Assembly (NCBI GenBank): GCA_965222765.1
Contig: CBDCVG010000043.1
Span: forward strand, 161,053-225,052
Length of the DNA: 64,000 bases
Source: Caldora sp.
Lineage (GTDB): Bacteria > Cyanobacteriota > Cyanobacteriia > Cyanobacteriales > Coleofasciculaceae
Direction: 5' to 3'
Below the pieces are notes generated by a model, which was given only the letters and a program-made list of their open reading frames with translations, did not search any database and had not been told where the DNA came from. Shown here piece by piece: positions 6,662-24,661 of the stretch. Both the position numbers and the translations under genes were made by a program. Position 1 is the stretch's first letter. Every line of letters starts with the position of its first letter.

Positions 6662-6713
6662 CCTCTTTTACGATATAGACAATGAGCCTGTGATCTAAAT
6701 CCAGTTTAACTAG

Positions 6714-6830
6714 ACTAGTACCGCTGCGCGGAATTAAGAATTAAGAATTAAGAATTAAGAATGCTTATAGTACGAGCAGAGTAAACTTCCTCAACTAAGT
6801 CTTCTGCCGTGCGTGGATCATCTTGCCAAG
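6714..6830 (+). mobile_element. MITE-like element, copy 1: left TIR ACTAGTACCGCTGCGCGG plus 4x AATTAAG; the right end is degenerate
   Basis: The left ~60 bp are identical to the elements at 20742 and 12941 (reverse complement). The right TIR is only partly recognisable (cttctgccgtgcg). It sits 53 bp upstream of the Uma2 start codon. Confidence 0.6.
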
Positions 6831-10631: not shown

Positions 10632-12245
10632 ATGAAATTTTCCTACGAACTTTCAACAGCTTTGCTTGGTGCAGCAGCAATCATACTGGTGCAACCTCAA
10701 ATCACTCTAGCTTTGACAGCTTCGGAGGTTAATGCTATTGCTGAAAAGATTACTGTATTGATTGCGCAAGAGGAACAACAAGTTGCTTCAGGAGTGATTG
10801 TTGGCAAAGAAGGAAATACTTATTTTGTTTTGACTAGTCAACATGTAGTACAAACTGAGGGTCAGTACCAGATTATGACTCCTAGTAATGCTAAACATTC
10901 TGTTAACTACAGCAACATTATCAAATTACCTGGGATTGATTTAGCTATCTTACAATTTATTAGCCCAAACATTTATCAAGTTGCTACCTTTGGTAATTCC
11001 AGCGAAGTAATTGTGGGTTCTCCAGCTTATATTTCTGGGTGGCCAAAACCTGGTTTTGCTCTCCAAGATGAAGCACCAATTCGTCTTTTTCACTCTGGAC
11101 AAATTTCAGCTCGTCAACCTCTCAAAGATGGTTACGAGTTAATCTATACTACCCCTACTCGTCAAGGAATGAGTGGAGGACCGGTGCTCAATGAAAATGG
11201 CCAGCTGATTGGTATTCATGGGCGTACTGATTTACCTACCCTAGAAACAGATCCCAAGCCTTGGGGAGTTAATTTAGGTATTCCCATCAACACGTTCATT
11301 GAATTAGCTCCTAGTCTTTATACTGAACAAGGAGAAATCAAGCTCAAGGCGCAAGCTTACCAGGAAGCCATTGCCTATTTTAACCAGGTACTAAAGTTTA
11401 ATCCCAACTCTGCTGCTGCCTATAATGGGCAAAGTTATGCTCATTTTGCTCAGACAGGGTATGAGGAATCTATTCAGAAGGCAACCCAAGCAATCAAGAA
11501 TAACCCTAAATTAGCTGAAGCTTACCTCATCCGGGGGGCTAGCTATGCTCAGCAAGGAAGTCACCGCCAAGCAATTGAGAATTTTAACGAAGCGATCGCA
11601 ATTAATTCTCGTTTTGCTGATGCCTATGCTTTGCGAGGGGTAAGTAAGGCAAAAATAGGGGATTCTAATGGAGCTTATAAGGATGTTGAACTGTCTCTTA
11701 AACTAGCTCCTAAAAGTTCTATTGCCTACATCTGCCTTAGCCAAATTCACTCCCTTGTTGGCTACAGGATAGGTGCAGGGGAGGCTAGTAGGATTGCAGA
11801 TGAACTCTTAGATACTTCTAGGGAGATAAATCCTTATCAAATGACGCTCAATCAAGTACTGGAAAGCCGTTTACTTCAAGATCTTGTTGTACAGACAACG
11901 CCAACTTCTTCTAACCCTCAGACAGCAGTAAATCCAGGAAATGAGTACTATACCAACACCATTAATCTAGTTGAGGCTTGCAAGTCTTATGATGACTCGC
12001 CTCACCAAAATGAGGCACTGCTGTGGCTACAAGATCAAATCCCTAAGTCTACTCTCAAAACATTTACGATGATGTGGCGACTGCAACTCATCTTTGACAT
12101 GGATAAGGAGCCGATGGAGCTCGTTAACGTTTGTCAGCATTATGAGGGTAAGGAACACCAAGATAAGGCTTTAGAAAGGCTACAGACTCGAATTAACCAG
12201 GTAACAATTATTGAGTTTGCCCAAAGGTGGTTCCAAACTCAGTAA
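10632..12245 (+). CDS. Secreted trypsin-like serine protease with TPR repeats and a C-terminal domain of unknown function
   Basis: Signal-peptide-like start MKFSYELSTALLGAAAIILVQP. The protease motifs are VLTSQHVV and GMSGGPVLNENGQLIGIHG, followed by about four TPR units. An alternative upstream ATG lies at 10485. Confidence 0.75.
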   Translation: MKFSYELSTALLGAAAIILVQPQITLALTASEVNAIAEKITVLIAQEEQQVASGVIVGKEGNTYFVLTSQHVVQTEGQYQIMTPSNAKHSVNYSNIIKLPGIDLAILQFISPNIYQVATFGNSSEVIVGSPAYISGWPKPGFALQDEAPIRLFHSGQISARQPLKDGYELIYTTPTRQGMSGGPVLNENGQLIGIHGRTDLPTLETDPKPWGVNLGIPINTFIELAPSLYTEQGEIKLKAQAYQEAIAYFNQVLKFNPNSAAAYNGQSYAHFAQTGYEESIQKATQAIKNNPKLAEAYLIRGASYAQQGSHRQAIENFNEAIAINSRFADAYALRGVSKAKIGDSNGAYKDVELSLKLAPKSSIAYICLSQIHSLVGYRIGAGEASRIADELLDTSREINPYQMTLNQVLESRLLQDLVVQTTPTSSNPQTAVNPGNEYYTNTINLVEACKSYDDSPHQNEALLWLQDQIPKSTLKTFTMMWRLQLIFDMDKEPMELVNVCQHYEGKEHQDKALERLQTRINQVTIIEFAQRWFQTQ

Positions 12246-12428
12246 TTTAAGGTGTTAGGTGTTAGGTGTTAGGTAATGGAATTGAGAAGTGATTAGAGCC
12301 TTGAAGCTACAAGGAAAGCTATTAAGGAAGAGAGTAAATCTAAAATCTAAAATCTCAATGACGCATTTAAATTGGTTTATCTTAATCTCCGCATCCCTAC
12401 ATTTCTCCGCCTCAGCACAATTTACAAT

Positions 12429-12707
12429 TTAAATGCACAAAAGCTTATAGGCAGTTTCCAGTGCTGATCTGTGTTTAAAGCCTCTAGAGTTATCCGAAAC
12501 TTTATAGCGGAAGGAGTGGGAGGCTCCGGTACGCTCAAAAACCCCTAATCGATGGAGCATAGGAACTAACCGCCTGACGCTATGGGTATTCACTTTTGTT
12601 ACTTGTGCAATTTCCTCCAGATTCAGCCACTGAGAGGATTCCTTAACGCCAGCATAAACTCGAATTAAATGGGGAAGTTGGGGCTGCACTTTGTTGACAT
12701 CTTTCAT
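12429..12707 (-). CDS. Small putative winged-helix/HTH DNA-binding protein
   Basis: 92 aa with the HTH-like segment LNLEEIAQVTKVNTHSVRRLVPMLHRLG. It is on the same strand as, and immediately downstream of, the NB-ARC gene. Confidence 0.4.
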   Translation of the reverse strand: MKDVNKVQPQLPHLIRVYAGVKESSQWLNLEEIAQVTKVNTHSVRRLVPMLHRLGVFERTGASHSFRYKVSDNSRGFKHRSALETAYKLLCI

Positions 12708-12828
12708 TAAACTTCCTTGAAATTTAATAAATTTTAAGGAAGAGTCTAACGAGTAGTTGTGAAAAAAATGTGAAAATCTAAGGACAAAAGATTAAAAAGC
12801 TTACCCTACAAGCATTCTGCCTTCTTAC

Positions 12829-12941
12829 ACTAGTACAGCGCGGCAGAAGTAACTAACCAGTTTGAGATCGATAGAATCCTTACTCTATAAGCATTCTTAA
12901 TTCTTAATTCTTAATTCTTAATTCCGCGCAGCGGTACTAGT
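12829..12941 (-). mobile_element. MITE-like element, copy 2 (113 bp, inverted orientation): TIRs ACTAGTACCGCTGCGCGG / CCGCGCTGYACTAGT flanking 4x AATTAAG
   Basis: The reverse complement is ~92% identical across its full length to 20742..20854. It ends 5 bp after the NB-ARC gene stop codon. Confidence 0.8.
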
Positions 12942-12946
12942 CTCGA

Positions 12947-15076
12947 TTACGAGATCAGAAACAGCACAATTAAGGAGATTGCGATCGCTAACATCAAAGT
13001 ACCTAAAATGATATCTCCTAGGTGATACTCATGGGGAGTTGCTTTCGTAGATTGTACTTTATCTCCCTTATCCTCCCATCTCCCCATCTCCGTGTCAGGT
13101 GCGTCTCGCGTCTCCGCGTCTCCATTAATCTCCCTATCTACTACATTTACTTGCAACTCTGTATGAGGGGTTTCAGAAGTTATATCCTGCATTGACTCTA
13201 GCCATTCTGCTACCCGTTGAGCTTCTGATAACTCCGGTTTCAGTTTAGTGAGGGCTTCTCGCCATAGAGCAACAGCTTTGTGTTTGTTGCCCTGTTGTAC
13301 ATAGAGAATACCCATATTGACTAGAGTTTGACCTTCTTTGTTAATATCTCCTAGTTTTGTGAAGCTGCCTAGGCTCTGTTCGTAACAATCCCTAGCTTTA
13401 AGCCAATCTCCTTGCTGGGAATAGATATTAGCTAGATTGCCCAAACTCATCGCTTCTGCATGAGAGTCTTCCAACTCCCTGAAAATGCTTAGACTCTGCC
13501 CATAGCGCTCGATTGTTTTCCCCCAATCTCCTTGCCTAAAATAGACTTTACCCAGGTTAGTTAAGGTTTGAGCTTCTTCTTGGGTATTGCCTAGCTCGCG
13601 GGTTGCTTCCAAAGCCCACAATTGAGTCCGTTCCCAGTCAGCCAAGTAAGCACGGATATCAAAAAAGTTAACTAAGCTCTTGGCAAAGGGAACTACTATA
13701 TCCCATGCTTGAGCTTGGTAAGCCCATTCTAAAGAAGCTAACAAGTTGCTGCGCTCAGTCTCAAACCAGTTTAAGGCTGCCGCCAGCAAGTGTGGCTCAA
13801 TAGCTTCTATAGATTGGTGGTTCAAGACTTTCGTGAAATTCTCTGAATTCTCAAGATACCAGCGTGCCACCCTCAAACGAGTTGCTTGCCGTTCCTCTAC
13901 TAGCTCCTCTTGAGCCAATTGCCCTCGGGCAAAAGAGCGCACCAAATCGTGGAAACGGTAGCGCTCCCTTCCAACAGGCTCCAACAGTTGCCTCTCAACT
14001 AGATAATGTACAGATTCCTTGGCGACAGCTGGCTCAACATCTAACAAGGAAGCAGCTAAGGGGAGCGTAAAGTTAGGTCCGGTTAACAATCCCAGTAAGC
14101 GAAACAGGCGAGCAGCAGTTGTATCGAGCTCCTGATAGCTGAGAACAAGGCTAGCTCGTACATCCAAATCGCTCAGGTACAGTTGTGCTAGTCGTTGCTG
14201 CTCATCAGCAAGTTGATGTGTGTATTCTGCTAGTTCCCAGTTTGGTTGATTTCGTAGAGTATTACCAGTGATGCGGATAGCTAGGGGTAGCCCATTGCAA
14301 AGATTGATCAAGTTTTTGCTTGCTTCCAGTTCAGCCTGAGAGCGTTCTACTCCTACCAGATCCCGTAGCAGAGCCAAGGCATCTAGTTCCGTCATCACTT
14401 CTAAGTCAACGACAGTAGCTTCCCTTAGATTCTCAAACTGTTTGCGCGTTGTAACTAGGACTCCACAAGTGGGACTATTTGGTAGCAAAGGCCGTATCTG
14501 AACCTCATCCCGAGCATTATCCAGCAGTACCAAAGCTCGTTTATCTGAGAGCAAGGAACGGTAGAGTTCAGTTCTCTCTTTGAGAGTTTCAGGTATCAAA
14601 TCGTCTTCGATACCCAAGACTCGCAAAAAACTAGCTAACACTGCCAATGGCTCCTGGCTCTGGCTCTCACTTCCCCTGAGATTGATGTATAGTTGAGCAT
14701 CTGGAAAATACGACTGTAGTTGATGGGCAATGTGGATAGCAAGAGTTGATTTACCGACTCCTGCTATACCAGTCAATGTACAGAGCTTAACAAGGCTCTC
14801 GCCTTGTAAGGCAGAAGGAAAGAGTCCTTCATCCTTCTTCAAAGTGGGGTCTTTTTCTTTAAGCTTTGGTGTTGCCTGTTGCAAACAAGCTTTCACCTGC
14901 TCTAATTCTGCTTGGCGACCTATAAAGTTGGCAATATCAGAAGGGAGCTGATGTATGGATGTAGGCTGAACTAAGGTACTTTCAAACAGCTGCATGACTT
15001 TTTTATTGTCACCAGCTACCACGCCTTCTACTAAATCGTGAAAAATTAGTTTGTACTTTGGTCTATCTTCAGCCAT
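12947..15076 (-). CDS. NB-ARC (STAND) ATPase with TPR repeats and a C-terminal transmembrane anchor
   Basis: The P-loop is GIAGVGKSTLA and the Walker B-like motif is LVLLDN. There are about five TPR units (...NLGKVYFRQGDWGKTIERYGQSL...). The C-terminus ends ...LGDIILGTLMLAIAISLIVLFLIS (a single TM helix). Confidence 0.8.
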   Translation of the reverse strand: MAEDRPKYKLIFHDLVEGVVAGDNKKVMQLFESTLVQPTSIHQLPSDIANFIGRQAELEQVKACLQQATPKLKEKDPTLKKDEGLFPSALQGESLVKLCTLTGIAGVGKSTLAIHIAHQLQSYFPDAQLYINLRGSESQSQEPLAVLASFLRVLGIEDDLIPETLKERTELYRSLLSDKRALVLLDNARDEVQIRPLLPNSPTCGVLVTTRKQFENLREATVVDLEVMTELDALALLRDLVGVERSQAELEASKNLINLCNGLPLAIRITGNTLRNQPNWELAEYTHQLADEQQRLAQLYLSDLDVRASLVLSYQELDTTAARLFRLLGLLTGPNFTLPLAASLLDVEPAVAKESVHYLVERQLLEPVGRERYRFHDLVRSFARGQLAQEELVEERQATRLRVARWYLENSENFTKVLNHQSIEAIEPHLLAAALNWFETERSNLLASLEWAYQAQAWDIVVPFAKSLVNFFDIRAYLADWERTQLWALEATRELGNTQEEAQTLTNLGKVYFRQGDWGKTIERYGQSLSIFRELEDSHAEAMSLGNLANIYSQQGDWLKARDCYEQSLGSFTKLGDINKEGQTLVNMGILYVQQGNKHKAVALWREALTKLKPELSEAQRVAEWLESMQDITSETPHTELQVNVVDREINGDAETRDAPDTEMGRWEDKGDKVQSTKATPHEYHLGDIILGTLMLAIAISLIVLFLIS

Positions 15077-15159
15077 AGATTGCTCCGTTAGCTTGTTGCT
15101 CCCACATAAAACTAATAGCTATGGAATTTCTCAATAAATTGCAAAAATGCTATATCACT

Positions 15160-15696
15160 TCAGGCATTACCAGGAATCAAAAGCTCCATTGAAGTCATGA
15201 GAGTACTAAGTACAGAGGTTCTAAGATTAGGATTAACTATCACAATGGGAGGGCGATTACTCTCACTTACATAACCTAACTGGAGCGTAATTTCTTCTGA
15301 AGACAAGGCTCCTGAACAATCCATATGGGTTAAACCAATAATCATCGGTATTTCTACTCGCTGTTCCATAAACGAGAGAATTGAGCGAGCATAGGGGAAA
15401 TCATCAGGTCGATGAGCTGCTACCAACAGGATATAAGTCTGAGCATCTTGAATCAAAATATCCCACATGAAATCAAAGCGGGATTGACCTGGAGTACCGT
15501 AGATATGTAAATCAATATCAGGACCAAATGTAACTTTACCAAAGTCGAAAGCAACTGTGGTCTCTTCCTTATCTATGGATATTTCATCAGTAACAGTTCG
15601 TTCTATTTGTACAACTTCAATTTCACTGGCAGTTCGCACAAAGGTAGACTTTCCTGCTCCAACAGTCCCTGTTACTACTAAACGCATATTTTTCAT
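15160..15696 (-). CDS. Roadblock-associated small GTPase (COG2229 / conservon CvnD-like), copy 1
   Basis: The P-loop is GTVGAGKST, the switch II motif is YGTPGQ, and the NKxD equivalent is THMD. It is ~60% identical to the protein at 16313..16948. Confidence 0.75.
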   Translation of the reverse strand: MKNMRLVVTGTVGAGKSTFVRTASEIEVVQIERTVTDEISIDKEETTVAFDFGKVTFGPDIDLHIYGTPGQSRFDFMWDILIQDAQTYILLVAAHRPDDFPYARSILSFMEQRVEIPMIIGLTHMDCSGALSSEEITLQLGYVSESNRPPIVIVNPNLRTSVLSTLMTSMELLIPGNA

Positions 15697-15849
15697 GACA
15701 TTTTGCTCCGAAAAAATATTTGTTATTGGTTGTTTGTCTCAGCGTTAGTGTAGATATTTAAGGTAGATAGTGAAATAAACAAATAACCAACAACAAATCA
15801 CAAATACTTACTGCTACTATGGTTTCGATAGACAAGTAGCAAGGCTTAA

Positions 15850-16221
15850 CTAAGCTAATGCCGGCTTAAGCTCGGTAACAGTGCGTTTAATTTCTAACAT
15901 CAGCACTCCCTGCTTTGCTGCTTTACCAGCTAGTACGAGAAAGACTGCATCTTCACCACAACTAGTCAAAATGCTAAAGCCTTCATTACCCTCAACATAG
16001 ATGCGATCAATTGCACCCCGGACAAGTTCCTTTCCAATACGTTCCCCTAAAGAAAGCATAGCAGCCGACATAGCTGATACCCGTTCGTCATCCATACCAC
16101 CAGGTAAACTGGAGGCTAAGGGCAAACCATCAGGAGTAACCATTGCTGCTCCCTGAACATCACTAGTGCCAGTGACAAAGCTTTGTAATATCTGTCCAAG
16201 TTTTTCAGAATTGATTGCCAT
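15850..16221 (-). CDS. Roadblock/LC7 (MglB-like) domain protein, copy 1
   Basis: 123 aa reading ...GAAMVTPDGLPLASSL...AMSAAMLSLGERIGKEL...FLVLAGK..., a typical Roadblock fold sequence. It differs from 17344..17715 at only 2 of 123 residues. Confidence 0.8.
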   Translation of the reverse strand: MAINSEKLGQILQSFVTGTSDVQGAAMVTPDGLPLASSLPGGMDDERVSAMSAAMLSLGERIGKELVRGAIDRIYVEGNEGFSILTSCGEDAVFLVLAGKAAKQGVLMLEIKRTVTELKPALA

Positions 16222-16312
16222 AATTGTGTTCCTACTTTAATTAAATTGAATATTTATTTTTATCAAAAATTAGATGATTTTTTGACAAAAATCAATTAGA
16301 GATTTAGCTATT

Positions 16313-16948
16313 TTAAAAATCTCGTGACAAAGATCTTGTGGATAATTGATAGGAATGTTTTGTCTGAGACTGAGCTGCTTGACTAACTGCTCGCCTCGTT
16401 ATCAATTGCTCAAAATTACATTGAGAAAGCATCAGAGCCATCGAAGCCATAACAGCTTCAATTACTGAATGTTTATCCCTAGGATTTACTCGCACAAACA
16501 GGGGTTGTTGTAACCTATTGATATAGCCCAGATTTAACATTATTTCTTCTGGAGCCTTTGCTTCTGGATAATCCATATGGGTTATACCAATAACCATTGG
16601 GATTTTGACTCGCTGATTCATAAACGTAATAATCTGACGAGCTTGGCGGAAATCATTGGGGCGGTGGGCTGCTACTAGCACAATATAAGTGTGAGCTTTT
16701 TGGATCAAAAAATCCCACATAAAGCTAAAGCGAGATTGACCGGGAGTGCCATAAATTTGTATATCCATGGCAGAACCAAATGAAATGCGACCATAGTCGA
16801 AGGCAACAGTAGTTTTTCTCTTAAGCTGGGCTGTTTCATCGGTAGCAGTGCGTTCTGTACTGATAGCTTCAATTTGACTAATTGTCTGCACAAAGGTAGA
16901 CTTTCCAGCTCCTGGAGTGCCAGCTACAACTAAACGCATAGTTTTCAT
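16313..16948 (-). CDS. Roadblock-associated small GTPase, copy 2, with a ~30-aa C-terminal extension
   Basis: The motifs are GTPGAGKST, YGTPGQ and THMD. The tail QCNFEQLITRR...SRDF is absent from copy 1. Confidence 0.72.
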   Translation of the reverse strand: MKTMRLVVAGTPGAGKSTFVQTISQIEAISTERTATDETAQLKRKTTVAFDYGRISFGSAMDIQIYGTPGQSRFSFMWDFLIQKAHTYIVLVAAHRPNDFRQARQIITFMNQRVKIPMVIGITHMDYPEAKAPEEIMLNLGYINRLQQPLFVRVNPRDKHSVIEAVMASMALMLSQCNFEQLITRRAVSQAAQSQTKHSYQLSTRSLSRDF

Positions 16949-17343
16949 TTGATTCTGCTCCGAAAGATTATCTAAAATTCATCCAACCAAATTAACTCGG
17001 TAACTAGGGAATTTTACATGGGGGTTTTAAACCTCCATGTAAAACCTAGTATCTATAGAAATGGAGAGCTCTTACTCCTAATGCTAATAACTAAAAAAAT
17101 GTTAACTATCAACCGTTAACTATTCACTGTTGAGACCATGCACCAATACTGAAATCTGGCAGAATCTTTGCCTATACCTAACCTAATTGAACTGATGGTA
17201 GTTACTGCATCAAACTTGAGCAATCAAACCTGTTAAGATGCATGGTAGTTCTACGTCAAGTCCACCTTAAATTCACTCTGATGACCAGATAATTGCTAAT
17301 TAATCGTTCCTCGATTAACCTACAAACAATTGGCTAGATTTAA

Positions 17344-17715
17344 CTAAGCTAAAGCAGGCTTAAGCTCGGTAAGAGTTCGCTTAATTTCTAACATTAGCAC
17401 TCCCTGCTTTGCTGCTTTACCAGCTAGTACTAGAAAAACTGCATCCTCACCACAACTAGTCAAAATGCTAAAGCCTTCATTACCCTCAACATAGATGCGA
17501 TCAATTGCACCCCGAACCAGTTCCTTTCCAATACGCTCTCCTAAAGAAAGCATAGCAGCTGACATAGCTGATACCCGTTCGTCATCCATACCACCAGGCA
17601 AGCTAGAGGCTAGAGGTAAACCATCAGGAGTAACCATTGCTGCTCCCTGAACATCACTAGTGCCAGTGACGAAGTTTTGTAGTATCTGTCCAAGTTTTTC
17701 AGAATTAATTGCCAT
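17344..17715 (-). CDS. Roadblock/LC7 (MglB-like) domain protein, copy 2
   Basis: ~93% nt and 98% aa identical to 15850..16221. Confidence 0.8.
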   Translation of the reverse strand: MAINSEKLGQILQNFVTGTSDVQGAAMVTPDGLPLASSLPGGMDDERVSAMSAAMLSLGERIGKELVRGAIDRIYVEGNEGFSILTSCGEDAVFLVLAGKAAKQGVLMLEIKRTLTELKPALA

Positions 17716-17799
17716 TGTTGTATTCCTGCTTATTCCTACTTGAATTTCAGTTAGTGGGATCTGGTTGAGTTGTATACCTTGAAGCTAGCAAACTGAGAT

Positions 17800-18354
17800 T
17801 TACATAGTATTTGCACCAGTTTTGATCAAACGCCTGAAAAGACCTTCAGTCCAACCAGTTTCTCGGAGAACAGCAGCTGAACTAACTTCTACGTAAGCTT
17901 GCTCAATGAAAGCTAAATCAATCATGCAAATTCTGCTTAAAGCATCAAGCAATTCTATAGGTTTGCCATCTACTTTTAGTTGTTTGCGAGCTTCATTAAT
18001 TACGGTTGCCATTGCTGGCACAACGTGTTGAGGTCCAATGCCAATTTGTACATGTACTAAACCAATGCGCCAACGACGATCAGCATAAGAATCACCCCAT
18101 TCATCCATCCCATTGAACATTTCGGCAAACCATTGAACAAAGGTTTCCCGTAGGCGATGCATACGTCCTTCTTTTTCATTCAAAATAGCGCTCATTTCTG
18201 GATCGCGACCCAAGTAAGCATAAAAATGATCTGCCATTTCTGGAGCAATTTCTTTACCCCAATCGAGATTAGATTTTAGGATTTCTTTGTCTTCTGCGGT
18301 AAAAGCAACACGCTTTTCCATTGTAGTCATAAAATCATGAGGATTTAAGGACAT
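17800..18354 (-). CDS. Single-domain protoglobin / globin-coupled-sensor-type globin (no output domain)
   Basis: Contains HRLRETFVQWF...YADRRWRIGLVHVQIGIGPQHVVPAMATVINEA, the sensor-globin signature. The ATG is at 18354; an upstream TTG is at 18381. Confidence 0.7.
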   Translation of the reverse strand: MSLNPHDFMTTMEKRVAFTAEDKEILKSNLDWGKEIAPEMADHFYAYLGRDPEMSAILNEKEGRMHRLRETFVQWFAEMFNGMDEWGDSYADRRWRIGLVHVQIGIGPQHVVPAMATVINEARKQLKVDGKPIELLDALSRICMIDLAFIEQAYVEVSSAAVLRETGWTEGLFRRLIKTGANTM

Positions 18355-18959
18355 ACATCTCCTTCTTGTATCAAAAAGCAATCAAGTTCATTTCATTTCT
18401 AACAATTTAATATGCTACTGTCTAGTTTTATTTTGACATTTTGTTTAAATTTAAGAAAAATATTTTTTTTGTTTTTAGAGTAATTTAGTTTTTTTTTTAA
18501 AGAGAAATTAAGATTGTCGAATTAATTAAAAATGTATTAATTGTAACAATTTAAATTAATGATTTTTACCCTAAAATCTTTTTCTATCCAAATAAGTGCA
18601 AGGAAAAAGCGTCATGAGACTCAAAAGATGAGCACAAATGATGAAAATCTACCTTGTGAATCATGGATAATCACTCCGGAACTGTTGCCTGTTGCCTGTT
18701 GCCTCTCGTCACAACCCGACTTATTCAGCAAGCCCTACTTAAATTATCGCCAAAATGCTTGACCCCTACTGTCCCCTAAAACTGTTTTATCTTTTCAAGA
18801 ATTATTCAGTTCTATCCGGATGGTTTGTCAATGTATTGTTTTTGTATTTCGAGTGGGAGCAAACCTATATTGAATAAGAGTTTTCACGATTATGACTGCC
18901 CAATCCCTCAAGGAATGGGCTTCCCGCCGCTTTTGGTGAGAATTGGCACAGTAATAGAT

Positions 18960-19205
18960 TTATTTTTTATGCTTTTGTGACTGATGCTCCTCAAACAGAG
19001 GCTTAACTTCCCCAGCAACCTCTTCTAACGCGGAGAGTCGCTGCTCAATTTCTTCCAACCTCTGTTGAGAAGATGACATTCCTAGGTAGCTTCTTAGAGC
19101 CGCAATCACTATATCTGACTTAGACTGCCCGGTTTGTTTCATCCGAGCTGCGATCGCTTCATTCAGCTCAGGAGATATTCTGACACCAAGGAATGGGTTA
19201 GCCAT
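18960..19205 (-). CDS. Ribbon-helix-helix (CopG/Arc-like) protein; possibly an orphan antitoxin
   Basis: Reads MANPFLGVRISPELNEAIAARMKQTGQSKSDIVIAALRSYL, followed by a coiled-coil tail. Confidence 0.5.
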   Translation of the reverse strand: MANPFLGVRISPELNEAIAARMKQTGQSKSDIVIAALRSYLGMSSSQQRLEEIEQRLSALEEVAGEVKPLFEEHQSQKHKK

Positions 19206-19811
19206 AGTATCAGTTCCATAATTGTTCTAGAGATGATAACAGTAGAAGATAACAACTAGATGATAACAGTAGGTAGTCAGGACAAAATCAACTGTGACAA
19301 TTAATTAATTAATGCTAAAGTCACAACTCACTATGTTGTCACAAATGGTTGCTCAATCCTACACATACCAAGTTGTTCGGTATTTAGACGGGATACTTCA
19401 ATTCTCTCAAAGGGAACAGGGGACAAGGAAAAAAATAGGGAATATCCAATTTAAATGCAGATTATTTTACCCCTAACTTGAGGTGGAAACGTCTTAAACT
19501 ATGGTTGTCAGTTCGAGCTAGAGCCTTAAAAAAAGGAAAATAAACGTTATCATAATGATAACAAAGATCAATTAAAAGCAAATATATGGTGTGGCTGTAA
19601 TCAATGAATGACAATGGTTTCCGCTTCTTTACCCTAAAAAATAGTTGCTCACTTACTCTAGTATTCTTCCGCACAAATCAAAATGGGTTTTCTGGGAGCA
19701 AGATGTTATATCTGTATATCTGAATCTGCTGCGATCGTCCACCAGCTCAAGTCAACAAATGCTGATTGACCATTTTATTTACATAAATTCACTAAGGAGT
19801 ATTGATTAAAC

Positions 19812-20549
19812 GTGGAAAACCACACAGAAAAAATCCTGGTGGTAGACGACGAAGCCGCCCTCCGGCGTATTCTGGAAACTCGCCTTTCGATGATTGGTTA
19901 CAATGTAGTCACTGCTGCGGATGGTGAAGAGGCACTTCTACTTTTCTCTGAGGAAGCACCTGATTTGATAGTCTTAGACATAATGATGCCCAAGTATGAT
20001 GGCTATTATGTGTGTAAAGAAATAAGAAAAAAATCTGATGTGCCCATCATTATGCTAACTGCCTTGGGAGATGTCGCTGATCGAATCGCTGGTTTGGAAC
20101 TCGGAGCAGATGATTATCTCGTAAAACCATTTTCACCCAAAGAGTTAGAAGCTAGGATTGCTTCTATTTTGCGTCGGTTTAAATCTACCATCACTTCAGA
20201 TTTCATCAGTTCTGGAGAGATTCAAGTTGGTGCATTGCATATCAATACTAACAAACGACGAGTTGCTCGAGGCAATGAGCAAATTCGGTTAACGGGCATA
20301 GAATTTGATTTGCTGCAACTGTTAGTTAATCACTCAGGTAAACCGGTTTCCCGTGCCGATATTTTGAAAGCAGTTTGGGGGATAACTCCCATCTGTCATA
20401 GTGATTTGCGGATTGTTGACGTTCACATCTCTCGCCTGCGAGCCAAAATTGAACAGAACCCCAAGCAACCAGAATTTATTATTACCGCTCGTGGAACAGG
20501 CTACTTATTTCAGCGCATGGCTGAACTCGTAGAACCAGCAAGAGCTTGA
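19812..20549 (+). CDS. OmpR-family response regulator (RpaB-like)
   Basis: The receiver domain is MENHTEKILVVDDEAALRRILETRLSMIGY...DVPIIMLTALGDVADRIAGLELGADDYLVKPFSPKELEARI and the winged helix is VDVHISRLRAKIE...ITARGTGYLF. GTG start with an AAGGAG 12 nt upstream. The N-terminus closely matches RpaB, but the C-terminal half diverges. Confidence 0.85.
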   Translation: MENHTEKILVVDDEAALRRILETRLSMIGYNVVTAADGEEALLLFSEEAPDLIVLDIMMPKYDGYYVCKEIRKKSDVPIIMLTALGDVADRIAGLELGADDYLVKPFSPKELEARIASILRRFKSTITSDFISSGEIQVGALHINTNKRRVARGNEQIRLTGIEFDLLQLLVNHSGKPVSRADILKAVWGITPICHSDLRIVDVHISRLRAKIEQNPKQPEFIITARGTGYLFQRMAELVEPARA

Positions 20550-20741
20550 AATTTATTTTTGTTTATGGTAGAGCCGCTTTTTGCTAATGGCTAGTAGCTA
20601 GTTATTAGCAGAAAGCGGCTCCTAGTGTAAGAAGGCAGGAGGCAGAAGGCAGAAGACAGAAGGAAAAAAAGAGAGGTATTAAGCTGTTACGCATTTAAAT
20701 GATGAATTAGTACTGACGCCGGAACGCATAAATTAGGACTA

Positions 20742-20854
20742 ACTAGTACCGCTGCGCGGAATTAAGAATTAAGAATTAAGAATTAAGAATGCTTATATAG
20801 TAAGGATTCTATCTATCTAAAGCTGGTTGGTTATTTACGCCGCGCTGCACTAGT
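20742..20854 (+). mobile_element. MITE-like element, copy 3 (113 bp, complete): TIR + 4x AATTAAG + spacer + TIR
   Basis: ACTAGTACCGCTGCGCGG...CCGCGCTGCACTAGT; see copies at 6714 and 12829. Confidence 0.8.
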
Positions 20855-21138
20855 TTAAATGTGTCTTAGTTTACCAATTTCCAATTCGCAATTCCCAATT
20901 CGCAATTTAATAATTCCCAATTTAATAATTCTCAAGTTAGGATATGAGGAGTAGCTAGCAGTAGTGAACATTACTCAGGCCAGACCTGTGTTCTTTAGGA
21001 ACACAGATATTTTTGGTCGCATGCTTACCTTTTGATTACCCCACCAACAATATTCTCAACATTGGCAGGGTAATACTCTTCATATCACTGGGACATCTTC
21101 TCTTTGGAAGCAACTAACCTCAATTGGAGAGATTATTT

Positions 21139-23682
21139 ATGCAAGCAGATGGCTTACCTATTAGTCCACAAGTTATGGACTCCACAGATGCTATCAAGTC
21201 TGCTATTACCAACAACTTTCCCATCGTTGCTCCTGATATACCTCTTATTGATGCTCTGAAACTTATGAGTCAGGAGGGGACAGCTCTTAATAATGGTAGA
21301 GCTCGACCCTTAAAAGTGCCTAGCAATCCCACGATCCCCTCATCTTTAGCAGGATGTAGTTGTGTCTTGGTAGCACAAGATAAACAACTTTTGGGGATAA
21401 TTACTGCAGCAGATGTGGTGCAATTGGTAGCTACAGGAAAGGAGTTAGAGAAATTTGCGATCGCTGAAGTGATGCAGCCATTGGTTATCACTTTGAAGCA
21501 ATCAGATTTACCAGCTCCTAGAGCAATCACGTCTTTATTTTATCAGCACCAAATCTCCCATATACCAGTTTTGAGTGATCACGGAGAAGTGGTAGAGATT
21601 ATTACTCCGGAAAATCTTCTGTACCAAACGGCGGAACACCAGCAAGCGGAAGAAGCTCTCTCAAAAATCAACCAACAGTTAGAAAACAGAGTAGAAGAGC
21701 GAACAGCAGTTCTTTCTTCCACTGTTGAGCAATTCCAACAAGAGATACACCAACGCCAACAGATAGAAAAGGAACTCCGCAAGAGTCAGATACTCTATCA
21801 AGGTATTGTTGAAGATCAAACGGGATTGATCTGCCGTTTTTTACCCAATGGCACGATTACCTTTGTTAATCAAGCCTACTGCGATTATTTCCATAAGCAG
21901 CCAAAGGAAGTGATTGGCTACCAGTCTTTACATCTAATGCCAATAGAAAACTCACCTCTGTTGGCAGATATAATTGCTGCTGTAAGTCCTGAAAACCCAG
22001 TCTTTAGGGCACAATATCAGGTTACTTTACCTACGGGTAAGATGGGTTGGCATCGGTGGACTATTCGTGCCTTCTACAATAGCGAAGTGGAAAGCGCTAA
22101 TGTTCTTGAACCAACTTGCTTGTTTAAATTACAGGCAGTAGGTTGGGATATAACCGAATCAAAGCAAGTCGAGCAGGTACTCCGCGTCAGTGAGGAACGT
22201 TATCGGTTGTTGGCAGAAAACTCCACTGATCTGATTTCTCGTCGTGATTTGACAGGGGTTTATCTCTACGCCTCACCAGCCTGTCGTACTCTACTAGGTT
22301 ATGAACCGGAAGAATTAGTGGGATTATCTAGTAACGACTTGATTCATCCCCAGGATTTGGAACATGCTCAGCAATGCCGAACCAATATTCTTCAAACACA
22401 AGATAATTGTACTAGTTCCTACCGCATCAGGAAAAAAGACGGCAGTTATATCTGGTTTGAAACTACTAGTAAAACAGTAATTGATCGAGATACTGGTGCA
22501 CCCAAAGAATTTGTCTCAGTCTCCCGAGACATCACTGAACGCTACCTCTCACAAGAGCGTATGCGTTTGTTTGAGTCAGCAGTTACCAATGCTAACGACG
22601 TGATTCTGATCACTGACGCAGATACTATTAATGGTTCTGGACCGAGGATTGTGTATGTTAACAAAGCCTTTACTCAGATAACTGGTTACTTAGCAGAAGA
22701 AGTGATTGGGAGGACACCGCGCATCCTCCAAGGTCCCAAAACAGACCGCAGCCAATTAAATAAAATTCGGGCTGCTATCCTTAAGAAGGAACCAGTTCAG
22801 GCAGAGTTAATCAACTACTCTAAAGACGGTTCTGATTACTGGATAGAACTAAATATCGTTCCCATTGCTGATGAGCGGGGGCAGTTTACTCATTTTGTTG
22901 CCATACAACGGGATATTACCAAACGTAAACAAGCCGAAGCGGAAATGCTCAAAGCACTAGCAAAGGAGCGAGAACTAAACGAGCTGAAGTCTCGCTTCAT
23001 TGCTATCACTTCCCATGAATTCCGTACTCCTCTTGCCACTATCCTTTCTTCTGCCGACCTATTAGAGAAATTTCCCTGTACAAAAGCAGAAAAGCAGGGG
23101 CTGTTTAATCAAATTCAAACCTCTGTCAAGCATATGACTCGGCTTCTAGAAGATGTGCTGTTTGTAACCCGTTCGGAAGCAGGAAAACTAGAGTTTAAGC
23201 CTACCCAGCTTGATCTGACGCAATTTTGTAGTGCTCTAGTCAAGGAAGTAGAAATTGGTTTAGGCAAATACCACCGACTATATTTTACGAGTTGTGGTAT
23301 TTGCAGCGGCTTCATGGATGAAAAACTACTCCGTAGCATTCTCACTAATTTGCTTACCAATGCTATTAAGTATTCTCTCCAAGGTAGTAGAGTCAAAGTG
23401 AGGCTCGCTTGTGAGGATGGGAAAGCGATCTTTCAGGTTGAAGATGAGGGCATCGGTATTCCTGTTGCAGATCAACAACATCTATTTGAAAGCTTTCATC
23501 GAGCCAGCAACGTTGGCAGTATTTCGGGCACTGGGCTAGGATTGACCATTGTCAAGAAATGTGTGAAGTCCCACGGGGGAAAAGTTGCTGTGGAAAGTCA
23601 GGTGGACAGGGGCACTACTTTTACTGTCACACTACCAATGAATTATGAACCATCAAAACAAGAAAACTATTCTGGTGATTGA
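21139..23682 (+). CDS. Sensor histidine kinase with an N-terminal CBS pair and multiple PAS domains
   Basis: The H-box is ITSHEFRTPLATI, with a complete HATPase_c region (N, G1, G2 boxes: EDEGIGI, GTGLGLTIVKK). There are three PAS-like segments. GGAG lies 9 nt upstream of the ATG. Confidence 0.85.
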   Translation: MQADGLPISPQVMDSTDAIKSAITNNFPIVAPDIPLIDALKLMSQEGTALNNGRARPLKVPSNPTIPSSLAGCSCVLVAQDKQLLGIITAADVVQLVATGKELEKFAIAEVMQPLVITLKQSDLPAPRAITSLFYQHQISHIPVLSDHGEVVEIITPENLLYQTAEHQQAEEALSKINQQLENRVEERTAVLSSTVEQFQQEIHQRQQIEKELRKSQILYQGIVEDQTGLICRFLPNGTITFVNQAYCDYFHKQPKEVIGYQSLHLMPIENSPLLADIIAAVSPENPVFRAQYQVTLPTGKMGWHRWTIRAFYNSEVESANVLEPTCLFKLQAVGWDITESKQVEQVLRVSEERYRLLAENSTDLISRRDLTGVYLYASPACRTLLGYEPEELVGLSSNDLIHPQDLEHAQQCRTNILQTQDNCTSSYRIRKKDGSYIWFETTSKTVIDRDTGAPKEFVSVSRDITERYLSQERMRLFESAVTNANDVILITDADTINGSGPRIVYVNKAFTQITGYLAEEVIGRTPRILQGPKTDRSQLNKIRAAILKKEPVQAELINYSKDGSDYWIELNIVPIADERGQFTHFVAIQRDITKRKQAEAEMLKALAKERELNELKSRFIAITSHEFRTPLATILSSADLLEKFPCTKAEKQGLFNQIQTSVKHMTRLLEDVLFVTRSEAGKLEFKPTQLDLTQFCSALVKEVEIGLGKYHRLYFTSCGICSGFMDEKLLRSILTNLLTNAIKYSLQGSRVKVRLACEDGKAIFQVEDEGIGIPVADQQHLFESFHRASNVGSISGTGLGLTIVKKCVKSHGGKVAVESQVDRGTTFTVTLPMNYEPSKQENYSGD

Positions 23683-24661
23683 AGACCAGCAAGCAATTCG
23701 AGCTAATCTTCTGAAGATCTTAAAACATGTTGGATTTCAAACAATCGGCGCAGAAAATGGCTTAGAGGGTATGGAATTGGCAAAGAACCATTTACCTGAT
23801 CTCATTATTTGTGACATTATGATGCCAGATATAGATGGTCATGATGTACTCAAAGAGCTGCTTCAAGACCCAGGAACTGCTAGGATACCTTTTATTTTCC
23901 TCACCGCCAAAGCCAATAGGTCAGATATTCGGGAAGGAATGAATCTTGGCGCAGATGACTATCTCACTAAACCATTTACTAGCGACGAATTAATCGATAC
24001 GGTCTTTGCTCGACTAGCAAAACAGGAGGCTATCACTCAACCCTATCTAGAGGATATGAAGCGAGCAACAGATGTTCTGGACGAAGTAGCGGGTAACATC
24101 AAGCAAGCGGTAGATCAGGTGAGTAAGTTATCCTACCGGGACTCACTGACTAATCTTCCCAATAGGAAAGCACTGCTTCATTGGTTACCAGAAACTCTCT
24201 CTGAGGCACAAGAAAAACAGCAGCAGGTTGCAGTTTTGTTTTTAAATTTAGATAATTTTCGCAGTATTAATACCAATTTTGGACAAGGGACGGGAGATTT
24301 ATTACTCAAGGCAGTGGTAGAACGGCTGCAAAATGTAGTCCCGGAAGAAAATGCTATTACCCACATCGGTGGGGATGAATTTTGCCTAATTCAGATGGGG
24401 GTACTTCAGAAACAAAATGCTGCTAAATTAGCTAGAAACCTCCTCAACTCGATCACTCAACCCTACTCTCTCAATGGTAAGCAAGTATCTGTTAAGACTA
24501 GCATCGGTATTGCTCTCTATCCTGATGATGGTCAAAATCCAGATCAGCTGCTAGCAACTGCTGATCAAGCAAGACGCTCGTGTCGGATGCGGGGAGGCGG
24601 CAACTATCAGTTCTACAGCTCAATGGCCGATAGGGTCAATGACCCCTCATTGCTCCGTTGA
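23645..24661 (+). CDS. Response regulator with receiver + GGDEF (diguanylate cyclase) domains
   Basis: The receiver is ILVIEDQQAIRANL...DLIICDIMMPDIDG...LTKPF and the GGDEF motif is ITHIGGDEFCLIQ. It overlaps the kinase gene by 38 nt. Confidence 0.85.
   Translation: MNHQNKKTILVIEDQQAIRANLLKILKHVGFQTIGAENGLEGMELAKNHLPDLIICDIMMPDIDGHDVLKELLQDPGTARIPFIFLTAKANRSDIREGMNLGADDYLTKPFTSDELIDTVFARLAKQEAITQPYLEDMKRATDVLDEVAGNIKQAVDQVSKLSYRDSLTNLPNRKALLHWLPETLSEAQEKQQQVAVLFLNLDNFRSINTNFGQGTGDLLLKAVVERLQNVVPEENAITHIGGDEFCLIQMGVLQKQNAAKLARNLLNSITQPYSLNGKQVSVKTSIGIALYPDDGQNPDQLLATADQARRSCRMRGGGNYQFYSSMADRVNDPSLLR

Follow-up and report, generated by a model that had tools for sequence, protein, structure and literature searches.

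Current work on bacterial ATPases of the STAND/NLR type treats them chiefly as phage sensors or transcription factors, and what is known of bacterial small GTPases with their Roadblock partners comes mainly from Myxococcus polarity and the actinobacterial conservons. Conservon operons combine a Roadblock/MglB-type protein and an ATP_bind_1-type GTPase with a membrane ATPase; a further, ligand-binding protein is often encoded as well (PMC4316618, PMC13343842). The polarity module of Myxococcus xanthus comprises the small GTPase MglA, its Roadblock partner MglB and the TPR protein SgmX, an effector of the GTP state (papers cited in PMC13343842; PMC7668184); MglA-GTP binds SgmX (refs 15 and 16 cited in PMC13343842). 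Wuichet and Sogaard-Andersen assigned cyanobacterial MglA-family proteins to Group 5 and M. xanthus MglA to Group 1 (PMC4316618).

The window analysed here, 64,000 nucleotides of a Caldora sp. contig, contains six genes on one strand in the order protoglobin, Roadblock, GTPase, Roadblock, GTPase and STAND ATPase, the last of these closing the cluster (Table 1). By analogy with the systems above, the STAND protein, as the product of the last gene of a conserved operon, is best explained as an effector or scaffold that sits in a membrane and serves an MglA/MglB-like G-protein switch, a reading to which a probability of roughly 0.55 is given. The protoglobin-Roadblock-GTPase-STAND cluster is undescribed in the literature searched, including the texts of PMC13343842, PMC13581612 and PMC7159879.

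Table 1. Features of the locus, with positions counted from the first letter of the 64-kb window.
Feature	Position	Strand	Basis
Half MITE copy, right end, 59 bp	6712..6770	.	100% identical
Stand-alone winged-helix protein gene, 92 aa	12429..12707	minus	ORF, AlphaFold2, restricted to Symploca lineage
Upstream block of 92-aa gene, ~70 nt (TTTCACATTTTTTTCACAAC...)	12708..12776	minus	Conserved in five genomes, rest of spacer not
MITE-like element, 113 bp	12829..12941	.	Imperfect terminal inverted repeats; internal (ATTCTTA)x4 heptamer array
Tail-anchored NB-ARC/TPR STAND ATPase gene, 709 aa	12947..15076	minus	ORF, ATG start, stop codon 12947-12949
C-terminal transmembrane helix (predicted), aa 686-709 (GDIILGTLMLAIAISLIVLFLIS)	12950..13021	minus	Hydropathy, AlphaFold2 helix, conservation
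Acidic disordered tether, aa 634-685	13022..13177	minus	pLDDT 30-46; gapped, variable alignment columns
TPR sensor-type domain, aa 458-633, four helix pairs + capping helix	13178..13705	minus	TPR_12 x2, AlphaFold2 helices
NB-ARC module, aa 96-390	13907..14791	minus	Pfam, invariant motifs, predicted secondary structure
N-terminal segment, ~45 aa, conserved	14942..15076	minus	Family alignment; no Pfam match
MglA-like small GTPase, 178 aa	15160..15696	minus	Pfam ATP_bind_1, Arf, Ras
Roadblock/LC7 (MglB-like) protein, 123 aa	15850..16221	minus	Pfam Robl_LC7, 54 bits; synteny
Second MglA-like GTPase, 211 aa	16313..16948	minus	60% identical to 178-aa GTPase; synteny
Second Roadblock/LC7 protein, 123 aa	17344..17715	minus	ORF; copy of first Roadblock
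Protoglobin (single-domain haem globin)	17800..18381	minus	Pfam Protoglobin, 76 bits; synteny
Second full MITE copy	20742..20854	.	Opposite orientation, 92% identical over 113 bp

The 709-aa open reading frame is a genuine member of a conserved NB-ARC/TPR STAND ATPase family of filamentous cyanobacteria, and its start (MAEDRPKY) agrees with that of its homologues. The P-loop NB-ARC module proposed in the first-pass annotation is matched by the Pfam NB-ARC profile (PF00931) at residues 96-314, with 66 bits against a cut-off of 23.5. It contains the P-loop GIAGVGKST (103-111), the Walker B motif LVLLDNA (D186), TTR (R211), GLPLAI (263-268) and the MHD-like FHD (375-377), and residues G103, G106, G108, K109, S110, D186, P264, L265 and H376 are invariant in an alignment of 31 family members. 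The AlphaFold2 model (mean pLDDT 80) follows the order of nucleotide-binding domain, helical domain, winged helix and repeat sensor, the last consisting of nine TPR-type helices at 458-633, where Pfam TPR_12 matches the protein twice (E 4e-27). The earlier count of about five TPRs is fair, since these helices form four pairs and a capping helix. Many TPR positions are invariant across the family, among them W481, N507, G509, W518, Y525, N547 and Y565. The N-terminal segment has the family consensus M..DRPRYELHFH..VQ.AVV.DYNKVTQIFQ, followed by LHQLPPDIADFTGR, and is modelled with pLDDT mostly below 55. It could be the real output element; an inspection by eye for an amyloid-type signalling motif found no matching C-terminal sequence in the neighbouring genes. 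No DNA-binding or enzymatic effector domain was found in the STAND protein.

Among solved structures, the best sequence match is AfsR of Streptomyces coelicolor, a SARP-family STAND regulator (PDB 8JKE, 8K60), whose NB-ARC and TPR core aligns over residues 95-623 of the STAND protein (E 1.7e-84). With the NCBIfam AfsR model, the similarity covers residues 40-611 (E 1e-111), but with a score of 374 against a cut-off of 1430 and only from model position 287 onwards. Unlike AfsR, the window protein lacks the N-terminal SARP portion (OmpR-type DNA-binding domain and BTAD): no Pfam domain occurs before residue 90, and only about 95 residues precede the P-loop strand. It also adds the tether and the predicted C-terminal transmembrane helix, and its genomic context is different. 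PH0952 (6MFV), Apaf-1 (1Z6T), MalT (8BOB) and plant NLR resistosomes, including NRC and ZAR1 among the Foldseek matches, share the same fold order (E 1e-14 to 1e-7), and the STAND protein retains their P-loop, Walker B, GLPL and MHD-like motifs. These proteins are soluble and have a recognised effector (CARD, coiled coil, TIR or DNA-binding domain), whereas the window protein lacks one and has a predicted tail anchor.

The final residues of the STAND protein, IILGTLMLAIAISLIVLFL, form its sole strongly hydrophobic 19-mer (689-707; mean Kyte-Doolittle hydropathy 2.94), which is followed by only two residues. Its summed insertion free energy comes to -4.7 kcal/mol, whereas the runner-up segment scores +5.4. 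AlphaFold2 places a helix at 686-708 (pLDDT 87-89) after a disordered stretch at 634-685, a tether whose length differs among homologues. The single hydrophobic C-terminal helix noted in the first-pass annotation is thus borne out and, together with the lack of a signal peptide or any other transmembrane segment, it makes the protein a predicted tail-anchored protein. On the combined basis of hydropathy, the modelled helix and conservation, the tether of about 50 residues and one transmembrane helix are predicted to fasten the protein to a membrane, plasma or thylakoid, leaving its ATPase and TPR parts in the cytoplasm. Most homologues carry Arg/Lys just before the helix, which is compatible with an N-in orientation; the window protein does not have these residues. 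Among the 120 best homologue clusters, 90 share the hydrophobic C-terminal tail, as do 25 of the 27 complete orthologues in reference genomes, so that the anchor is the rule in this cyanobacterial family, and the earlier description of membrane-tethered STAND proteins as uncommon was overstated. Differences in the tail coding sequence among close relatives are synonymous and conservative. Because the tail is conserved in relatives without the MITE, it is not junk created by that insertion, an outcome that the first-pass annotation had considered. In some orthologues encoded in the same operon, an amphipathic helix takes the place of the hydrophobic tail (W-S-P-L-E-L-A-R-N-A-L-Q-W-F-R-R; hydrophobic moment 0.47-0.50), and in more distant relatives a two-helix hairpin occurs at the C-terminus or a transmembrane helix at the N-terminus. 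What appears to be under selection is attachment to the membrane as such.

The upstream conserved cluster was absent from the first-pass account. The 178-aa GTPase gene lies directly upstream of the STAND gene, separated from it by 83 bp. The two Roadblock copies are identical at 121 of 123 residues, whereas their DNA is only 91.9% identical, and these proteins are under very strong conservation. The listed protoglobin reading frame begins at a TTG and encodes 193 aa, while homologues have 184 aa, which suggests that translation starts at the ATG at 18354. The cluster is of housekeeping character, as seen in the invariant TPR residues, the Roadblock conservation and the lack of a PADLOC family match. 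No Rfam match was found across 12200-19000, and a scan of 12300-18800 for consensus promoters and terminators was uninformative because it gave fewer sites than shuffled sequence. In relatives, accessory proteins of 155-171 aa that match no Pfam family are encoded beside the Roadblock genes; they are absent from the cluster in the window.

The likeness to the actinobacterial conservons (CvnA-D) lies in the pairing of Roadblock and GTPase with a membrane-bound ATPase in one operon, with two such pairs (CvnB-type and CvnD-type) at 15160-17715. The membrane ATPase here, however, is a STAND NB-ARC protein instead of the histidine-kinase-like CvnA, the accessory sensor is a protoglobin in place of a GAF protein or cytochrome P450, and the host is a cyanobacterium. 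The same-strand genes at 12429-18381 include neither a histidine-kinase-like CvnA sensor nor CvnC (DUF742). As a candidate CvnC analogue, the 92-aa protein encoded downstream was rejected, as it gave no DUF742 Pfam match even at E<=10. The Myxococcus module shares with the locus a small GTPase, a Roadblock partner and a TPR protein; SgmX differs in being a soluble TPR protein without an NB-ARC module, and its gene is not located beside mglA.

If the STAND protein is the effector of such a switch, the haem protoglobin would sense a gas or redox signal, and Roadblock (MglB-like) dimers would set the GDP/GTP state of the MglA-like GTPases. The GTP-bound GTPase would then bind the invariant TPR surface of the STAND protein, a contact inferred by analogy with MglA-GTP and SgmX. 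This binding would relieve NB-ARC autoinhibition, leading to ADP-to-ATP exchange and to oligomerisation on the membrane, and the resulting oligomer would act as a localised platform; filament polarity, motility and development are the likeliest guesses for its output. The order of action could be reversed, with the STAND protein regulating the GTPases. The complete chain, in which the protoglobin passes information on oxygen, nitric oxide or redox state to GTPases under Roadblock control and STAND oligomers then set filament polarity, gliding reversals or development, is a tentative and rather doubtful extension. The gene that follows the homologous GTPase in Nostoc desertorum encodes a PATAN-domain protein; as PATAN regulators are tied to pilus-based motility (bioRxiv 10.1101/2021.06.11.447907), this hints that the effector is encoded at this position. 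If correct, the proposal would describe a 'signalosome' that resides in a membrane, has no immune role and shares its components with eukaryotic NLRs and Ras-type switches, and a conserved operon joining a membrane-tethered STAND protein to Roadblock/GTPase pairs and a haem sensor would put the NB-ARC switch to a third use. Such an operon would also provide a first functional lead on the widespread, unstudied Roadblock/GTPase modules of filamentous, mat-forming cyanobacteria, and with this cluster the idea of a small GTPase as the ligand that activates a STAND protein could be cleanly tested.

The STAND protein might alternatively be a membrane-associated regulator that works independently of the upstream genes, the neighbourhood being a gene order inherited in one clade. 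The orthologues come mainly from Coleofasciculaceae-type genomes and their neighbours, a fairly narrow clade, and part of the synteny may therefore reflect common descent. Roadblock/GTPase clusters without a STAND gene are widespread, occurring in Moorena, Nostoc, Allocoleopsis PCC 7113 and Symploca sp. SIO2G7, so the module can do without the STAND gene, which can be lost alone. The distribution of the cluster genes nevertheless makes independence unlikely. Roadblock, GTPase or protoglobin genes lie upstream on the same strand in all 29 reference loci whose STAND bit score exceeds 550, against just 1 of 34 lower-scoring, more distant STAND loci, and in 23 of the 29 the gene directly upstream (within 600 bp) encodes the 178-aa-type GTPase. 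Downstream flanks vary by genus, with every downstream neighbour replaced, and the protoglobin shifts within the cluster, but the adjacency of this GTPase and the STAND gene outlasts these rearrangements, with same-strand gaps of as little as 22-53 bp in Symploca and Caldora. The consistent partners of the STAND gene are thus the upstream Roadblock/GTPase pairs and the haem globin, not the MITE or the winged-helix gene. Between Symploca sp. SIO2C1 and the window, the STAND protein is 90% and the GTPase 99% identical.

Two further explanations are each improbable. One is an NLR-like anti-phage or abortive-infection protein whose TPRs would sense an invader and whose clustered C-terminal helices would damage the membrane upon oligomerisation. 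Such a role would suit a STAND protein that carries no other obvious effector, and many bacterial STAND proteins are defence receptors, some systems having transmembrane effectors (PMC13581612, PMC7159879). In the PADLOC scan, however, none of the six cluster proteins matched a defence family, the STAND protein giving only a generic TPR match and two marginal P-loop matches at E>1e-3; neither the defence model nor the defence-island context of known anti-phage STAND proteins (Avs, bNACHT) was found, and the neighbours are signalling genes. Gene order is stable, the TPR residues of the sensor are fixed and not diversifying, and the amphipathic and N-terminal anchors within the family fit localisation but not pore formation. 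The other explanation, put forward in the first-pass annotation, treats the 92-aa winged-helix protein as a dedicated regulator paired with the STAND sensor. The two genes share a strand with 239 bp between them, the arrangement recurs in Symploca/Caldora loci (L001/L015, L011, L012, L013, L014 and L016), and the small protein is modelled as a winged helix. The orthologue comparison recommended earlier weighs against the pairing, with the small gene present in only 4 of the 29 orthologous reference loci and confined to Symploca/Caldora-type genomes. In Symploca sp. SIO2G7 (L010), it remains beside the GTPase in a locus that lacks the STAND gene, a clean absence for which tblastn and blastn recovered no remnant, and a 69%-identical copy occupies an unlinked locus. 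The MITE and variable heptamer arrays lie between the two genes, and the small gene has its own conserved upstream block, which contains a 15-nt palindrome at 12712-12742 over a Shine-Dalgarno-like AAGGAAG and is likely to be that gene's own promoter or operator. The proposed role as a dedicated regulator is therefore unsupported.

The 92-aa gene is a neighbour specific to its lineage, with a likely control region of its own upstream, and both it and the MITE are ordinary local features. That its product resembles a winged helix, as first suggested, agrees with the AlphaFold2 model (pLDDT 86.6), in which H1, a strand, H2, H3 and a beta-hairpin wing succeed one another. Foldseek matches of this model include SqrR, SmtB, BigR, MarR and TubR (E ~5e-4, TM-score ~0.55). 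No curated HTH family matched the protein above threshold (the best Pfam hit was a Dimerisation domain, 19.9 bits against 25.6), and there was no NCBIfam match; a distant relative, P0247, exceeds the thresholds of HTH_36, HTH_11, HTH_DeoR and HTH_24. The family is small, with six matches in an indexed search and 16 proteins at E<=1e-3 in an exhaustive profile search of 1.84 billion representatives.

The 113-bp element was correctly placed and delimited in the first-pass annotation: the stop codon of the STAND gene lies at 12947-12949, leaving 5 bp (12942-12946) before the element. Its terminal inverted repeats are 24 nt long and 75% complementary, and it folds into a hairpin (z = -2.9). Flanks of five copies revealed no target-site duplication outside the element, while a CTAG or TA duplication inside the terminal ACTAGT would escape such a comparison, and no transposase with matching ends was found within the 64-kb window. 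The suggested comparison with orthologues was informative here, as the element is missing at the same spot in four relatives; it is a later, strain-specific insertion in a repeat-prone spacer that left the STAND reading frame intact. As a short, non-coding sequence with inverted repeats, several copies and sharp homology ends, it is MITE-like: homology among copies ends precisely at the terminal ACTAGT on both sides, three further full copies occur in metagenome contigs, and the second full copy within the window sits between a response-regulator gene and a histidine-kinase gene.

The STAND protein unites an NB-ARC/TPR architecture and a conserved membrane anchor with a conserved operon. The first-pass annotation had described a tail-anchored STAND protein, an abutting MITE-like repeat (MITE) and a downstream helix-turn-helix gene; these observations were confirmed, and as first written they are mostly ordinary. 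What lifts the finding above that level is the conserved coupling of the STAND gene to a G-protein and haem-sensor operon. The accompanying interpretation stands for the tail, is not supported for the 92-aa gene as a dedicated regulator, and missed five further genes upstream on the same strand.

Features of the STAND locus and its surroundings (window coordinates)
Feature	Coordinates	Strand	Remarks
MITE, half copy	6712-6770		59 bp, perfect
Peptidase/TPR protein, 586 aa	10485-12245	plus	trypsin-like peptidase domain, then TPRs; convergent with 92-aa gene
Winged-helix gene, 92 aa	12429-12707	minus	
Palindrome, 15 nt	12712-12742		93% complementary; directly upstream of 92-aa start codon, covers AAGGAAG ribosome-binding stretch
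MITE, full copy	12829-12941		113 bp; five bases from STAND stop codon (12947-12949)
STAND gene, 709 aa	12947-15076	minus	start MAEDRPKY agrees with homologues
MglA-like GTPase, 178 aa	15160-15696	minus	83-bp gap to STAND gene
Roadblock/LC7 protein	15850-16221	minus	
GTPase, 211 aa	16313-16948	minus	
Second Roadblock protein	17344-17715	minus	
Protoglobin	17800-18381	minus	
MITE, full copy	20742-20854		92% identical; opposite orientation to 12829-12941 copy

The cluster also lies upstream of the STAND orthologue in Symploca sp. SIO1C2, Coleofasciculus, a Microcoleus strain and GCA_037025365.1. When the open reading frames of 63 related loci from reference genomes were searched with the window proteins, Roadblock, GTPase or protoglobin genes were found upstream on the same strand in all 29 loci with a STAND score above 550 bits. 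In 23 of these 29, the 178-aa-type GTPase gene directly precedes the STAND gene at a distance of no more than 600 bp, the gap being 22-53 bp in Symploca and Caldora. Among the 34 lower-scoring STAND loci, which include Phormidesmis and actinobacterial proteins of the SARP type, only one contained any of these genes, namely a Roadblock gene. Adjacency of GTPase and STAND genes is kept despite genus-specific downstream neighbours and a shifting position of the protoglobin gene. The Roadblock/GTPase module is more widespread than the STAND family: Moorena, Nostoc desertorum and Allocoleopsis franciscana PCC 7113 have the module but no STAND gene with it. At the N. desertorum locus (L077, 8872-9741), a PatA_N (PATAN) domain protein follows the homologous Roadblock/GTPase pair in the STAND slot, with FraC nearby, which hints at a link to filament polarity or motility.

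The two Roadblock paralogues of the window share 121 of 123 residues, and their DNA is 91.9% identical over 406 nt (33 mismatches); near-identity of the proteins despite about 8% DNA divergence indicates very strong purifying selection. One or more genes of 155-171 aa adjoin the Roadblock genes in five loci of relatives (L004, L006, L011, L077 and L078; for example, L006 5722-6207) and are repeated several times in Coleofasciculus; their products match no Pfam family, and the genes are absent from the window cluster. The stretch past the protoglobin gene (window 18960-24661) holds a small ORF for a ribbon-helix-helix protein together with genes for a response regulator of the OmpR type, a histidine kinase with a PAS domain and a response-regulator/GGDEF protein; the second MITE copy separates the regulator gene from the kinase gene. 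In Symploca sp. SIO1C2, too, genes for a response regulator, for a PAS protein and for a GGDEF protein flank the cluster.

Because all sequence and modelled-fold features tested agreed, the STAND protein is assigned to the NB-ARC STAND clade. The annotated NB-ARC module was recovered by Pfam at residues 96-314 (66 bits versus a cut-off of 23.5), together with two TPR_12 domains (E 4e-27). The P-loop (GIAGVGKST), Walker B (LVLLDNA), TTR, GLPLAI and MHD-like FHD motifs are present, with key residues invariant across the family. An AlphaFold2 model built from 31 family members (mean pLDDT 80) begins with an ill-defined N-terminal segment of about 45 residues, continues through nucleotide-binding, helical and winged-helix subdomains, two long helices and nine TPR-type helices (458-633), and ends in a disordered acidic stretch (634-685, pLDDT 30-46) and a confidently modelled helix (686-708). 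Foldseek matched this model to PH0952, Apaf-1, plant NLRs and MalT. Among solved structures, AfsR is nearest in sequence (8JKE, 8K60; E 1.7e-84, query residues 95-623), and the NCBIfam AfsR model aligns to residues 40-611 (E 1e-111), from model position 287 onward only and with a score of 374, far under the cut-off of 1430. An AfsR/SARP regulator was ruled out, as the DNA-binding module is absent. Residues 1-45 (window 14942-15076), modelled with low confidence, carry a motif kept family-wide (RYELHFH..VQ.AVV.DYNKVTQIF) for which a search returned no family match; short GD.N-type repeats take its position in more distant cyanobacterial NB-ARC/TPR relatives.

The tail segment IILGTLMLAIAISLIVLFL is the sole strongly hydrophobic 19-mer of the protein (mean Kyte-Doolittle hydropathy 2.94) and is followed by two residues; its summed insertion free energy is -4.7 kcal/mol versus +5.4 for the next best segment. 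A hydrophobic C-terminal helix ends 90 of the 120 best homologue clusters and 25 of 27 complete orthologues (reference contigs, one genome per species), with the consensus GG.I..IAIALFL across the family and synonymous or hydrophobic-conservative differences among close relatives. This conservation decides against a tail of junk sequence created by the MITE. In six clusters the C-terminus is instead a conserved amphipathic helix, WSPLELARNALQWFRR, with a hydrophobic moment of 0.47-0.50; the same operon type encodes at least two such proteins (L006 and L038). More distant relatives have either a two-helix hairpin at the C-terminus or a transmembrane helix at the N-terminus. That the membrane is reached in several distinct ways suggests selection for membrane attachment as such. 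The orthologue of Caldora sp. SIO3E6 (L014, 2287-4686) ends in ...GDIILGSVMFVSRSF, a shortened transmembrane helix that is probably due to a frameshift or sequencing error.

We infer that the STAND protein may serve as a membrane-bound effector or scaffold of a G-protein switch. Ligand binding by the repeat sensor of STAND proteins allows ADP to be exchanged for ATP and the protein to oligomerise. A second analogy is provided by the TPR protein SgmX, which is bound by MglA-GTP according to work cited in a passage of PMC13343842. On these two analogies, a gas or redox cue would be sensed by the protoglobin, Roadblock dimers would set the nucleotide state of the GTPases, a GTP-bound GTPase would bind the invariant TPR face of the STAND protein, and the latter would then assemble on the membrane. 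Against an effector or scaffold count the dispensability of the STAND gene for the Roadblock/GTPase module, its narrow clade and the conserved N-terminal motif, for which such a role does not account; the order of action could also be reversed. An endogenous signalling role fits better than an arms-race role, because the sensor residues are invariant, the Roadblock paralogues are nearly identical and no defence-family match was found for the cluster.

Like the actinobacterial conservon, the window cluster combines Roadblock and GTPase proteins, a membrane ATPase and an accessory sensor; a conservon proper was ruled out, as CvnA and CvnC are lacking. Cyanobacterial MglA-like GTPases form Group 5 of Wuichet and Sogaard-Andersen (PMC4316618), passages of which on this group name no conserved neighbours. 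Neither a protoglobin-Roadblock-GTPase-STAND cluster nor bacterial tail-anchored NB-ARC proteins were found described in the literature covered, a coverage that is incomplete, so that absence is not proof.

A role as dedicated STAND regulator is not supported for the 92-aa gene: it lies downstream of the STAND gene in loci of Symploca and Caldora, is missing from 25 of 29 orthologous reference loci, directly follows the 178-aa-type GTPase gene in Symploca sp. SIO2G7, where the STAND gene is lacking, has a second copy (69% identical) at an unrelated locus, and is preceded by its own block of about 70 nt, kept in five genomes in which the remaining spacer is not. We read it as a separately controlled, lineage-specific neighbour that is probably autoregulated; the palindrome just before its start codon, which is part of the conserved block and unchanged in Symploca sp. 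SIO2C1, may act as an operator or as a hairpin affecting translation. AlphaFold2 models the protein as a classical winged helix bearing an additional C-terminal helix (pLDDT 86.6), closest to small ArsR/SmtB-, MarR- and TubR-type proteins (E ~5e-4, TM-score ~0.55), and no Pfam or NCBIfam family scored above threshold. An indexed search returned six proteins, all Symploca-type; a profile search run exhaustively over 1.84 billion representatives gave 16 with E<=1e-3, of which two reached E<=1e-10, the more distant matches being other small winged-helix proteins. Between the GTPase and winged-helix genes of SIO2G7 (L010, 7613-8001), tblastn detected no STAND remnant; the junction has heptamer arrays, the STAND gene is cleanly absent, and in this metagenome-assembled genome the absence may reflect either a genuine deletion or a collapsed assembly.

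Metagenome contigs contain three further full copies of the MITE. Homology among the five full copies stops precisely at the terminal ACTAGT at either end, and their flanks are unrelated; the 24-nt arms are 75% complementary, the interior holds a heptamer array of variable length, and the RNA would form a hairpin (z = -2.9). Outside the element there is no evident target-site duplication, and the 64-kb window holds no autonomous partner. The MITE is missing at the equivalent spot in four relatives, the sequence around the STAND stop (TCTCG-TAA-TCGAGA) is common to all five genomes compared, and other repeats follow the stop in relatives (AATGACC arrays, and GGCAGAA/GGCAGGA arrays in the closest relative); these comparisons mark the insertion as recent and strain-specific, with no change to the protein. 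The spacer behind the stop is a repeat-prone hot spot. Heptamer tandem arrays fill it, with ATTCTTA inside the MITE (window 12893-12920) and others in L011, L013, L014 and L015.
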